From an uncultured Candidatus Obscuribacterales bacterium (lineage in GTDB: Bacteria > Cyanobacteriota > Vampirovibrionia > Obscuribacterales > Obscuribacteraceae): a DNA stretch of 42,190 nucleotides. This document shows, one piece after another, positions 18,885 to 22,666 of this stretch (position 1 is its first letter; each line of letters begins with the position of its first letter). Both the position numbers and the translations under genes were made by a program. The DNA lies in contig CAZJLR010000003.1 of the NCBI GenBank assembly GCA_964546815.1, forward strand, positions 1 through 42,190, in the 5' to 3' direction. Below the pieces are notes generated by a model. That model worked only from the letters and a program-made list of their open reading frames with translations. It did not search any database and was not told where the DNA came from.

Positions 18885-20349
18885 TCTCAAATTGGCAAAA
18901 CGCGAAGAAACCTATTTGGAGTGCGCTCCAATCGGGAAATTTTCGCGTCTGGTTCACCAATTTATGATAAAGAAAAAACTGCCTGTAGCGTTCAGCGCCT
19001 GGGGAATCTGTTCAATTCCAGTAGCAGGTGGATTGATAGCGTCATACGCTCAACCAATCTTGCTAGCAGCAAATGAAACACATCTCGATTTAATGGCGGC
19101 TGGACTGGCTCTCCCCCTTCTGCTACCGTTATTTGTTTTGCTGCGAAAACCAACGCATATTAGAATCACAAGCGAAGGTATTTCATATACCTGGCACTAT
19201 ACGATTAGAATTAATAGCAAACTACTTCCCTGGGAAGATGTTGAGACAATCAGCCTAATTCAACCGAAAAACACCAGCCGCGCTCAAAGCCGCACTTTGT
19301 CGTTCAAAGGTGCCGGGCAAAGCGTAGATTTAAAGGTAGACGAAGTTACAGACCCCCTGAAACTACCTTCACTTTACCAGGCAATTATTACGCATGCACC
19401 ACAGGTTCCCCGAGACGCCGAGATACAATCAATACTCGGTGCAGACAAGTCTAGCGCTTCGTACACCGAATTGTGGCTTAAAGCACTCACAGCTCCCCCA
19501 GAGAGAAGTCGATTGGAACCACTTTCTACCGGCACAAGCTTGCAAGATGGCAAGTATATTGTGCTAGATAAAATTGGATCGGGCGGACAAGGAGTAGCCT
19601 ACACTGCCACTACCGGCAATGGCAGTGAGAAAAATACAGTTGTGCTGAAAGAGTACGTACTACCGCTGGGAGTCAGCCACGCAAACAAAGCTGAATCACT
19701 CGAAAAGTTCCAAATGGAAGCCCAGATACTGGGGGAATTAGACCATCCGCAAATTGTAAGACTGCTGGACTTTTTCTTCGAAGACCACAGAGGCTATATG
19801 GTCTTAGAATATGTCCAGGGACGCAATTTGCAATCTCTCTGCCACTCAGAGGGAGCATTGAGCGAAAACAAGGTTATTGAACTGGCAAAACAAATGTCCA
19901 ATATTCTCGATTATTTGCACAGTCGCGCCCCCGCCATCATTCACAGAGACTTTACGCCAGACAATTTGATCTTAACCGCTGATGGTACACTCAAATTGAT
20001 AGACTTCAATGTTGCCCAACAGCAAAAACTAAGTGCGACAGCCACTGTTGTAGGAAAGCATTCATACATCGCGCCAGACCAGTTTAGAGGTCAGGCTACA
20101 CCTCAAAGCGATATTTATTCGATGGGGGCGAGCATCGCATACTTACTTACAGCAACTGAGCCAAAACCAATTTCATCGAGTCATCCCAGAGAAAAAAATC
20201 GGCAAGTTAGCACTGAAATGGATGCAATTGTCGCTAAATGCACGGCTGTTGATCCCTCTCGCCGATTTACCAGTGCAAAAGAATTCAGGCAGGCAATAGA
20301 GCTCTTAAGCGGTTCTGTAACAGAAAACGTCAGCGCACTGGAACCGTAA
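18868..20349 (+). CDS. Paralogous membrane-anchored kinase-like protein, with one PH-like module plus a kinase-like domain. It overlaps the 3' end of the previous gene.
   Basis: G-loop IGSGGQGVAY; VVLKEY; HRDFTPDNLIL; DFN in place of DFG (LIDFNVAQQ); IAPDQF. An ORF-track alternative start at 18847 overlaps more. The N-terminal TM helices are followed by ITSEGISYTWHYTIRINSKLLPWEDVETISL, which is the PH-like module. Confidence 0.85.
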   Translation: MSTKNNLKLAKREETYLECAPIGKFSRLVHQFMIKKKLPVAFSAWGICSIPVAGGLIASYAQPILLAANETHLDLMAAGLALPLLLPLFVLLRKPTHIRITSEGISYTWHYTIRINSKLLPWEDVETISLIQPKNTSRAQSRTLSFKGAGQSVDLKVDEVTDPLKLPSLYQAIITHAPQVPRDAEIQSILGADKSSASYTELWLKALTAPPERSRLEPLSTGTSLQDGKYIVLDKIGSGGQGVAYTATTGNGSEKNTVVLKEYVLPLGVSHANKAESLEKFQMEAQILGELDHPQIVRLLDFFFEDHRGYMVLEYVQGRNLQSLCHSEGALSENKVIELAKQMSNILDYLHSRAPAIIHRDFTPDNLILTADGTLKLIDFNVAQQQKLSATATVVGKHSYIAPDQFRGQATPQSDIYSMGASIAYLLTATEPKPISSSHPREKNRQVSTEMDAIVAKCTAVDPSRRFTSAKEFRQAIELLSGSVTENVSALEP

Positions 20350-22666
20350 TTCCATCAAAATTCCGACGAATCTTATCAGGGTTGATTAGCATATTTCCTT
20401 TGACAGTATTGTCGTCACCGCCCCACGGATTGCGAACTCGCAATGCTTTTACCTCAGGACGCAGTCTTAGGGTATAAGCGTGGTTGGAGGCAAATCCATC
20501 CGGCTGCGACTTTCGTGCACGATTGGTAGACAAGACAGTCGGCTCGCTTCGAACCCTGAGATCTTCAACCAGTTTGTTGAGGTCTTTTACACTTTCAAGA
20601 CTCACCAGGTTGTACTTTTGACCAGTTAGAAGTCTCAAAACGGCAGCAGGATTGCCACCATTGCCCGACACTTCCAAATCAATTGGTTCATGCCGTTGCT
20701 CTGCATGGCTGTCGTGGCGTCTGCAATATTCACCAAAAGCTTCTTCAATTACACGAGGCCAAACACCATGTTTTGTTGCTTCCATGCCTATTGCAAGCAT
20801 AGACTCAGTAGGATGGGGCACTGTTATAGGATGCTTTGGGTCACCACGGAAAGTGACAGTGTATGTACCATCACTGTTCTCTTTAATCATCTGAGAAATT
20901 ATGCCAGGACGCGACTCGGCGACAGAGGAAAGGGCTGCAGCCAAATAGCAATTTCCGAAGCTACTTTGATTAACAGCATCTGCATTGATATTTTCATCAG
21001 CACCTCCAGGACCATAGAGGTCATAACAATCACTCTTTTCCTGGCTGAATGCAGCTTTTCTGCACGATCGATTTAGGTCATCAATAACTTCGGCAGCAGG
21101 ATCGGCGTCAAACTTCCGCATATATGCCAAGATAGACTTTTCGTCTATCTTAGGCCCCATGCCTGAAACTGCTCTATCAAAAGCGGCTTTGGTCTCTTCG
21201 CTAACATTATTAGTGTTAAGAGAAGCCCTGATTTCCGAAGTTTCAAAATAAGAGTCCCGAGGGTGGTTTTCCAAGAATTGCATACTCATTACAAACTTTG
21301 CATCTGCAGAGTCCTTACATTCTTGCAGCAACTTTTCGCAAGCATCAAGACTTACGATGCCGCCATTTCTTTCCATTAGTTGATTTAACGCAGTTTCCGT
21401 CTCCGGATCAATATCGTCCTTGCTCAAGTGCTCAGAAAGTGTGCATTCATCAACAACCCCGTCATTTAGCAAATCAGGATTAGATTTCAAATATGATGTG
21501 GCTAAGCTATAATTTTCAATAGCCTGCATCACCGTGCGAGTCGGATTTTCTGAAAGCTGCTCTTTCCAGAGAGCTGATATCTTGTGATAACCGAGAGGTC
21601 CATCAGGAATTTTTTCCAAAGCTTCGTTTATCGCTTTTACTGTAACTGGGTCCTTGCAGTCCTTGAGACTTTGGATCATTTCCTCGCGAGGAAATAGGGC
21701 TTTGAAGCGGTTGCCTCCATGATTCCAAGTCAAATTCAGCAGCTCTTTCAAATCGTCAGCACCCTTTTGTTGAGTTGCTAAAAAAGCATCAATAGACTTG
21801 ATATTTTCTTGCGTAATGCTCTTGTCGTTGGATTTTTGTGAACCAAGCTGAGAGAGCTCATCTCTATTCATGTACAATGCGCCGACGACCTGGGCATTTT
21901 CACCTTTGTACACTGGGTCTCTTAATGCAGAGACCAACTCTATTTTGCTTAATTTTCCATCTTCGTTCAAATCTAAGCGCGGAAATAACTTTAGTGCAGT
22001 TTCGGCGAATTCAGAGCCTAAGCGGGGAATAGATTCGTTTCTGATTCCTTTTGATTTTTCATAAATAGGGTCGATCTGCTTCCAGACTTTTTCGCTGGAT
22101 TTATCTTCCATCTCTAGAAACTGCAAATCAAATCCATTTATCGTGTTAGCACTTTGATGGCAATTAATCGCAGATTTCGAGAAGATCTTTGAAGAACGAG
22201 AGTAAATATCATCCTTTTGAAAATTGATGATCTCAGAGGCATGTTTCAACTCAGACTTAGCTTCAATCACTTTTTCAGCAATAGCAGGACCCAAAGCCTG
22301 AAGAACATCTTTTTCTCGCTGTGCGCGATTAGCCGACTCTGACCATCTTAATTTATCGAGGGCAATATCAACTTTAGCCTTGTCGCCCTCTGGCAACTTT
22401 GCAATCATGTCTTTGGCATCAATGATTGATTTTGCGCTATTAGACGTGTGGATTTCTTTGCGCTCAGCGGCGCTTAAAGCAAAATGCTCAGTGAATTCCG
22501 GAAGCGAATTTCCAGATTTGCTACCAGAGTTCGTTCTGCCAGCTTTGGTTTCAGCCAGAGCGTCGATTAGCAATTGGTAGCTTGGATTTGACGAATTATC
22601 CGTCAGCTCGTTTTCACGACTAGCCTTGTCGCCCATTGCAATAACACCCGATAATTTCCCAGGCAT
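20330..22666 (-). CDS. Large protein with an EF-hand Ca2+-binding loop and a C-terminal calpain-like (peptidase C2) cysteine-protease domain.
   Basis: EF-hand loop DLNEDGKLSKIE, which fits the D-x-N-x-D-G-x-[ILV]-x-x-x-E pattern. Calpain catalytic signatures: Q-x4-GNCYLAAALSSV (Gln/Cys), NHAYTL (His), and RVRNPWGGDDN (Asn). The gene is convergent with the preceding kinase-like gene and overlaps it by 20 nt. Confidence 0.8.
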   Translation of the reverse strand: MPGKLSGVIAMGDKASRENELTDNSSNPSYQLLIDALAETKAGRTNSGSKSGNSLPEFTEHFALSAAERKEIHTSNSAKSIIDAKDMIAKLPEGDKAKVDIALDKLRWSESANRAQREKDVLQALGPAIAEKVIEAKSELKHASEIINFQKDDIYSRSSKIFSKSAINCHQSANTINGFDLQFLEMEDKSSEKVWKQIDPIYEKSKGIRNESIPRLGSEFAETALKLFPRLDLNEDGKLSKIELVSALRDPVYKGENAQVVGALYMNRDELSQLGSQKSNDKSITQENIKSIDAFLATQQKGADDLKELLNLTWNHGGNRFKALFPREEMIQSLKDCKDPVTVKAINEALEKIPDGPLGYHKISALWKEQLSENPTRTVMQAIENYSLATSYLKSNPDLLNDGVVDECTLSEHLSKDDIDPETETALNQLMERNGGIVSLDACEKLLQECKDSADAKFVMSMQFLENHPRDSYFETSEIRASLNTNNVSEETKAAFDRAVSGMGPKIDEKSILAYMRKFDADPAAEVIDDLNRSCRKAAFSQEKSDCYDLYGPGGADENINADAVNQSSFGNCYLAAALSSVAESRPGIISQMIKENSDGTYTVTFRGDPKHPITVPHPTESMLAIGMEATKHGVWPRVIEEAFGEYCRRHDSHAEQRHEPIDLEVSGNGGNPAAVLRLLTGQKYNLVSLESVKDLNKLVEDLRVRSEPTVLSTNRARKSQPDGFASNHAYTLRLRPEVKALRVRNPWGGDDNTVKGNMLINPDKIRRNFDGITVPVR

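Follow-up and report, generated by a model that had tools for sequence, protein, structure and literature searches.

Organisation of the EF-hand/calpain-like gene

The subject of this analysis is a gene in a 42,190-nt stretch of DNA from an uncultured Candidatus Obscuribacterales bacterium (assembly GCA_964546815.1, contig CAZJLR010000003.1, positions 1 to 42,190), to which we refer as the window. On its minus strand, at 20330..22666, lies an open reading frame (ORF) of 778 amino acids (aa), the full ORF in our ORF list, whose product joins an EF-hand module to a C-terminal calpain-like cysteine protease domain. The initial annotation had reported this ORF correctly, and had also proposed that, together with two convergent kinase genes, it forms a eukaryote-like Ca2+ and phospho-signalling module. 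The true start of the protein is probably M11 (ATG at 22636), 30 nt inside the annotated ORF, because a 1-nt insertion or deletion relative to the DNA of the orthologous contig L001, 9 nt before this ATG, makes the upstream frames differ, and because M11 is aligned with the initiator methionine in at least 90% of relatives. The most likely coding sequence would then be 20330..22636, giving a 768-aa protein that begins with MGDKASRE. Directly before this putative start codon is a conserved non-coding stretch of about 40 nt (22637..22680, minus strand), which may be a regulatory 5' leader. Its identity to L001 (~88%) is above that of the neighbouring coding DNA, despite the insertion or deletion.

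The polar N-terminal region (22016..22636, minus strand) is largely disordered. In the AlphaFold2 (AF2) model, the predicted local distance difference test score (pLDDT) is below 50 for aa 1-74 and 154-203, the disordered segments being aa 11-74 and 154-203, with a helical segment at aa ~66-162. This region is specific to the orthologous pair (52% identity to the relative P0002), the first 217 residues contain no Pfam domain, and the N-terminal region has no match in the PDB. It is followed by the EF-hand pair module (aa 218-294; 21785..22015) and then by a helical linker or middle region (aa ~295-544; 21035..21784; pLDDT 50-88), which is fast-evolving (47% identity to P0002) and has detectable homologues solely in the orthologue. 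Additional EF modules were considered in the middle region and rejected: BLAST self-comparison of the protease found neither degenerate modules nor internal repeats in aa 300-540, and the EF-module hidden Markov model (HMM), run with filters off, recovered only the module at aa 218-294, the next-best match (E 0.69) being in P0002, so that suspected degenerate copies at aa 375-540 were not confirmed. A helix-bridge-helix pattern of the AF2 model at aa 400-440 is suggestive only. The calpain domain (Peptidase_C2 or CysPc-like) occupies aa ~545-778 (20333..21034) and therefore comprises about 235 residues, not the 300 given in the initial annotation.

The assignment of this domain to the calpains is based on profile, fold and residues. 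With the Pfam Peptidase_C2 profile (PF00648) the window protein scores 33 bits, where the gathering threshold is 23.8 (E 4e-8), and all 151 cluster representatives over which conservation was counted match this profile too (best E 8e-29). A search of PDB sequences with the window protein alone gave no direct match; the family profile was required, and a profile built from 100 relatives found calpain-9 (E 5e-20) and m-calpain (E 3.5e-18). In the Foldseek comparison the top 37 matches were all calpain cores, so that, within clan CA, the predicted CysPc fold is nearer to that of calpains than to the folds of the other peptidases. The three calpain signatures occur exactly as first quoted, in the right order and spacing: Q567-x3-G571-N-C573-YLAA, N728-H729-AYT and R745-N746-PWG. 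The catalytic codons, all on the minus strand, are at 20966-20968 (Gln567), 20948-20950 (Cys573), 20480-20482 (His729) and 20429-20431 (Asn746). Among the representatives these residues are kept at 94-100%: Gln567 in 151, Cys573 and His729 in 149 each, and Asn746 in 142, with Asp in a further 8, a substitution known to be tolerated (PMC4631099). The motifs are kept in the 61%-identical orthologue as well. Because of the profile match, the fold and the conservation of the catalytic residues, we conclude that the gene is predicted with confidence to encode a real calpain-family (C2) cysteine protease. Two outcomes named beforehand as arguing against this identity, failure to recover a papain/calpain fold and lack of conservation of the Cys/His/Asn residues in orthologues, were both examined and neither was found.

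The EF-hand module could also be substantiated. Its canonical Ca2+ loop (DLNEDGKLSKIE; D232 to E243, nt 21938..21973) matches PROSITE PS00018 and is kept in the orthologue as DINSDGKLSKFE. With 79.7 bits against the family module HMM, this is the sole statistically supported module in the window protein. In the AF2 model the module adopts a paired helix-loop-helix fold, with helices at 220-231, 241-248, 255-271 and from 286 onward, short bridges in both loops and a pLDDT of 92-97. The sequence logo of 444 unique module copies shows a loop 1 of the form D(89%)-x-[DN](82%)-x-[DN](83%)-G(73%)-x-[LVI](95%)-[ST]-x-x-[ED](90%), followed by a conserved "DAQ..AALY" helix and then by a variant loop 2 (D-E-x-E-N-D-G-I-T-x-x-D). 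The family profile matches the EF-hands of ALG-2/PDCD6, calmodulin and CDPK at E ~1e-5. Among the relatives, Pfam EF-hand_6 is found at E<=1e-3 in 82 of 151, and one of them (P0003) reaches 38 bits with EF-hand_5, for which the cutoff is 25.9. The canonical loop upstream of the protease domain is thus part of what, by these sequence marks, is a genuine and conserved EF-hand module.

Evolutionary rates differ strongly along the protein. They were compared as dN between the window and L001, dS being saturated, and amount to 0.33 for the N-terminus, 0.23 for the EF module, 0.43 for the middle region and 0.12 for the protease domain, against 0.085 for the domain of the kinase encoded next to it. 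Overall identity (61% for the protease versus 91% for the kinase) suggests a much faster evolution of the protease, but this does not hold by domain: the catalytic domain is constrained much like the kinase domain, and it is the non-catalytic regions of the protease that evolve 3-5 times faster. A role in determining specificity, or a partly disordered one, would fit the fast regions. For the N-terminus, positive selection was considered and rejected, since dN/dS is below 1 in every region (~0.1 in the protease domain) with dS saturated; the evolution of the N-terminus is rapid or relaxed, not demonstrably adaptive.

Family and relation to known calpains

While a word-indexed homologue search returned a single relative over the full length, which is 61% identical and comes from a metagenome-assembled genome (MAG) of Candidatus Obscuribacterales, an exhaustive HMMER scan over 1.84 billion representatives yielded 2129 cluster representatives at E<=1e-3, of which 663 reach E<=1e-10 and 119 reach E<=1e-30. 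Architecture was assessed on the best 150 of these 2129 after local re-alignment. About 145 of the 150 align twice, once over the EF region (query ~214-300) and once over the C-terminal protease (query ~510-775). Many relatives carry 2, 4 or 8 canonical EF loops at a spacing of ~90 aa, the module arrays reaching at least 8, and EF module and protease co-occur in ~65 of 72 genomic loci. A scan for a single conserved peptide pattern in the species genomes of GTDB, which gives a lower bound, located at least 71 loci in 50 genomes, 17 of which hold 2-3 family loci each, again as a lower bound. Labels of Obscuribacter, Obscuribacterales, Melainabacteria or "Cyanobacteria bacterium" are attached to 59 of the 71 loci. 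A few loci come from MAGs of Bryobacterales, Burkholderiaceae, Chloroflexota, Kofleriaceae or Actinobacteria, where the contig is in some cases very short. A phage origin was rejected, as no tblastn match was obtained in 50,697 phage records. The initial annotation described calpain-type proteases as very sparsely distributed in bacteria; this is true in general (PMC4631099), but not of the Obscuribacterales lineage, in which this large family is present in several copies per genome.

This EF-hand/calpain fusion (EF-calpain) is a large family, expanded in Obscuribacterales, which are related to cyanobacteria but do not photosynthesise, and it has apparently been undescribed so far. The databases carry automatic labels, namely a precomputed PF00648 match and, in IMG, "Ca2+-binding EF-hand superfamily protein". 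Two surveys of calpains (PMC4631099, PMC9380684), which do not cover Melainabacteria, list no EF-hand-containing bacterial calpain, and in the literature library searched no paper names both "calpain" and "Melainabacteria".

The window protein has the same Gln/Cys/His/Asn set as the classical eukaryotic calpains (CAPN1/2/3/9; MEROPS C2), nearly the same Cys-to-His spacing (156 residues versus 157 in m-calpain), and the RNPWG and EKAY motifs in common with them; classical calpains likewise join the protease with EF-hand Ca2+-binding domains. However, identity to the eukaryotic proteins is only ~15%. What classical calpains have and the window protein lacks is a Calpain_III/C2L domain, a C-terminal penta-EF-hand domain and a small subunit; it ends 32 residues past Asn746, and its EF module is a single pair placed N-terminal to the core. 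The core itself also differs. In calpain-2 its Ca2+ ligands are I89, G91, D96 and E175 at site 1 and E292, D299, Q319 and E323 at site 2 (PMC4631099). We mapped these sites by profile alignment to human m-calpain (1kfu_L), calibrated on Cys105. D96 aligns with A564 (Ala in 127 of 151 relatives), E175 with G634 (Gly in 149 of 151) and E323 with N758 (Thr in the family), whereas D299 and position 319 fall in a segment of ~25 residues that is deleted in EF-calpains. By this alignment, the two Ca2+ sites of the calpain core, and hence its electrostatic switch, are absent from the family. Since they are missing, any Ca2+ control would have to be exerted via the N-terminal EF module, an arrangement analogous in function to that of classical calpains but different in architecture. 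The term "eukaryote-like" used at the outset is therefore not supported, and the likeness to classical calpains would be convergent in architecture, not inherited.

The missing core sites agree with the published statement that bacterial homologues lack them. The two surveys (PMC4631099, PMC9380684) describe these homologues as devoid of Ca2+-binding sites and as having CysPc alone in common with other calpains. The bacterial calpains surveyed, including Tpr of Porphyromonas gingivalis, also have a C-terminal C2 domain in a longer protein, and they likewise largely miss the core Ca2+ sites, keep the catalytic residues and are patchy in taxonomy. Some of these homologues carry Ca2+-binding repeats at the N-terminus, one from Gloeobacter, for instance, having the architecture HemolysinCabind x8 followed by pC2 (PMC4631099; PMC9380684). 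The EF-calpains differ from the catalogued architectures in possessing an EF-hand, and the family, with its 2129 representatives and multiple copies, sits in Obscuribacterales, outside the earlier surveys.

Genomic neighbourhood

The protease gene is convergent with two tandem kinase genes on the plus strand. The nearer one, K2 (18847..20349), encodes a transmembrane (TM)-anchored Hanks-type Ser/Thr kinase (Pkinase 143.9 bits, 2 TM segments) with K/HRD/DFN/APD motifs, DFN and APD being variants of DFG and APE. Its 3' end overlaps that of the protease gene by 20 nt. Upstream of it lies K1 (16881..18884), likewise a gene for a TM-anchored Hanks-type Ser/Thr kinase, whose product has TM segments and the catalytic motifs (Pkinase 125 bits); the K1 and K2 ORFs overlap by 38 nt. 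In both kinases the TM anchor is N-terminal and the K/HRD/DF[GN]/AP[ED] motifs are intact. K1 contains an internal duplication of a membrane module of ~115 aa (aa 63-177 versus 251-365, 29% identity, E 2e-15), for which there is no Pfam match. In L001 the arrangement is repeated: the K2 orthologue (91% identical over the kinase domain) overlaps the 3' end of the protease gene by 17 nt. At three other loci (L002, L003 and L029), K1/K2 orthologues with 40-55% identity, including the membrane modules, are convergent at 1.6-5 kb downstream of a family member. The protease and the TM-kinases are the only genes common to these five loci. In two of them (L002:7367-8386, L003:3963-4985) the kinase-linked EF-calpain gene is directly followed, on its own strand, by a gene for a conserved helical protein of ~340 aa that matches no Pfam model; the cluster of this protein is represented in 14 loci and is not found in the window.

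Altogether, four Pkinase genes are present within the window at 16881-39328, starting at 16881, 18847, 23673 (with TPR repeats) and 36725. This density is well above that of 72 related loci, where ~714 kb contain 12 kinase domains. Among the neighbours encoded within 4 kb of family genes, the commonest are proteins consisting of the EF module without the protease, which lie on the same strand (14 and 12 loci, about 26), Ser/Thr kinases (11 loci), proteins combining a caspase-like Peptidase_C14 domain with TPR (8 loci; L046:1752-4553 and seven others) and histidine kinases (7 loci). These EF-module-only proteins have tandem modules, some together with LysM, and none has a signal peptide; examples are L016:9812-12085 and the ones in L010, L012, L013, L022, L024 and L026, located downstream. 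As a family, the EF module has been expanded separately as well.

On the other side of the protease gene is the tmRNA gene ssrA (22949..23342, minus strand; Rfam 138.5 bits), with the predicted tag peptide ANNVVQLRPAMRLAA. The initial annotation placed the protease immediately downstream of ssrA, and indeed it starts 283 nt further on along the same strand. However, ssrA adjacency is seen in none of 20 other family loci. Because of this, and because neither an att repeat nor an integrase was found, the adjacency looks incidental. A T-rich run follows the 3' CCA of ssrA, so that transcription of the protease gene probably starts from a separate promoter.

Other genes of the window are mentioned here as side observations. 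A protein of 359 aa encoded at 25808-26887 on the minus strand is rich in His and Gly at its N-terminus (MSHGGMGGGGGHHGHHGGHHGG), has one hydrophobic segment and ends in a long tail of low complexity, rich in Q, A and P; it has no Pfam or PADLOC match. On the same strand, 26999-28750 encodes a TPR protein of 583 aa that matches SPFH/Band-7 weakly. A 1073-aa protein encoded at 9796-13017 on the plus strand has a VIT domain as its sole Pfam match. Further, a baeRF_family3 protein (3348-4391, plus strand; 39 bits), which is a bacterial homologue of archaeo-eukaryotic release factors, is found near a gene for a LuxR-type response regulator (1252-1926, plus strand) and three tandem universal-stress-protein genes (4789-6810, minus strand).

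Interpretation and competing explanations

On balance, we are inclined to regard the product of this gene as an active, non-Sec and probably cytoplasmic calpain-family protease, for which any Ca2+ input would come through the fused EF module, which belongs to a large Obscuribacterales family and which may be tied to TM kinases. The family architecture is a polar variable N-terminus followed by 1 to 8 EF-hand-pair modules, a linker and a minimal calpain core at the C-terminus. Binding of Ca2+ at the EF-hand module, and not at the core, might then be the regulatory input, either turning the protease on or docking it to its targets, whereas the fast-evolving N-terminal and middle regions might fix substrate or partner specificity. 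In the lineage represented by the window, the membrane-anchored Ser/Thr kinases encoded next to the protease may be its targets or its partners.

The initial prediction that the protein is cytoplasmic and lacks a signal peptide was partly confirmed. There is no TM segment and no signal peptide in the window protein (maximum 19-residue Kyte-Doolittle hydropathy 0.84), and an N-terminal hydrophobic signal is missing from all 151 representatives, which start with polar, low-complexity sequence. The protease is thus likely to be cytoplasmic, but a minority of relatives carry domains of the export or toxin-delivery type. As to the proposed Ca2+ and phospho-signalling module, the part that stands is the recurrence of convergent TM kinases in five genomes. 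We therefore see in the link between protease and kinases a real but limited hint, not a demonstrated module, and K2 as a possible functional partner.

Several observations weigh against the interpretation that we favour. The other ~67 family loci have no orthologous TM-kinases, and in a quick neighbour-joining tree the grouping of the kinase-linked proteases in a single clade was unsupported. The kinase genes are in convergent orientation, so that protease and kinases cannot be co-transcribed. In the window protein the Pfam EF-hand_1/5/6/7 profiles reach only 12.6-15.8 bits against cutoffs of 25-30. The acidic ligands typical of the family are gone from its loop 2 (aa 277-288, QKSNDKSITQEN), which leaves a single intact EF loop. 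Finally, the delivery-type domains referred to above are RHS in 6 of the 151 relatives, LysM in 3, collagen-flanked surface repeats (CFSR) in 4 and annexin in 2.

These last domains count in favour of the main rival explanation, which we consider unlikely: an effector or toxin exported by a non-Sec route, such as contact-dependent or specialised secretion, with the C-terminal calpain domain as its payload and an EF-hand that would be off in the low-Ca2+ producer and on outside or in the target. Bacterial calpain domains are usually C-terminal and sometimes fused to the delivery modules WXG100, Tox-PL or HemolysinCabind (PMC4631099). Several family copies per genome, the polar, disordered N-termini of all members and the faster evolution of the non-catalytic regions would also fit such a role. 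On the other hand, the window protein itself has no recognisable delivery domain, the RHS matches amount to few repeats and concern only a small fraction of the family, and dN/dS stays below 1 everywhere. No secretion-system genes are found in the window or among the recurrent neighbours, and the overlap of the 3' end with the convergent kinase gene leaves no room downstream for a co-directional immunity gene. There is weak similarity between the EF pair (aa 223-290) and the type III secretion system effector XopAW (NCBIfam NF041410), but with a score of 18.9 bits against a cutoff of 120 the window protein is not a XopAW member, and XopAW, unlike the window protein, is without a protease domain. 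Quite improbable, in our view, is that the EF module, stabilised by Ca2+, mainly serves docking or assembly in the manner of a dockerin, and so would tether the protease to nearby EF-only proteins as a scaffold and would not sense Ca2+. The EF-module-only proteins adjoining family members, the long module arrays and the dockerin-like pattern of the family loop 2 (G-I-T-x-x-D-L) are in line with this idea; yet there is no Pfam dockerin match, the profile fits the EF-hands of calmodulin, ALG-2 and CDPK, and the window has a single EF module across its 42 kb and no EF-only partner gene.

Two further explanations have less in their favour. The protease could be a cell-death or conflict effector, similar to those of abortive infection, triggered by Ca2+ influx after envelope damage or infection within a kinase and caspase-like network. 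The caspase-like proteins and kinases within 4 kb of family genes and the concentration of Ser/Thr kinases in the window might be taken in this sense, but we think this very improbable. PADLOC gave no match for the protease, on which ground membership in a defence system was rejected, nor for its relatives, including P0006, and its matches of the kinases to PD-T4-6 reflect generic kinase-domain similarity. Moreover, there is no phage homologue and no adjoining STAND NTPase or other classical conflict-system part. The 3' ends of ssrA genes are known integration sites, and given the position of the protease gene downstream of ssrA, it might be the cargo of an ssrA-integrated genomic island, horizontally acquired from a eukaryote. 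This has hardly any credibility. Within the window such an island was rejected: the 20-mer at the ssrA 3' end, with up to 3 mismatches allowed, matches only ssrA itself, no integrase is encoded among the ORFs, the GC content is flat, and the 20 other family loci lack ssrA. A eukaryotic source is also at odds with a bacterial family that spans the lineage and with the low identity to eukaryotic calpains.

Returning to a cytoplasmic protease with a fused EF module, it is tempting to go a step further, although we would regard what follows as a long shot. Obscuribacterales might have independently evolved Ca2+-gated calpains, with the window locus as a prokaryotic Ca2+-to-phosphorylation relay in which the protease would clip K1/K2 off their TM modules, by analogy with the conversion of PKC to PKM by calpain in animals; or the EF-plus-calpain combination of this sister lineage of Cyanobacteria might be related to the ancestor of the Ca2+-regulated eukaryotic calpains.

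According to the published view, bacterial calpains are devoid of Ca2+ sites. Here, a core without sites of its own is consistently joined to EF-hand modules. Should the proteins be exported instead, they would constitute a new class of Ca2+-armed protease effectors. If, however, Ca2+ does regulate EF-calpains in the cell, they would represent an independent solution to Ca2+-controlled intracellular proteolysis and a tractable bacterial model for the gain of Ca2+ control by calpains. Such regulation would also point to Ca2+ signalling in a lineage that is uncultured and little known, and in which Ser/Thr kinases and caspase-like proteins abound.

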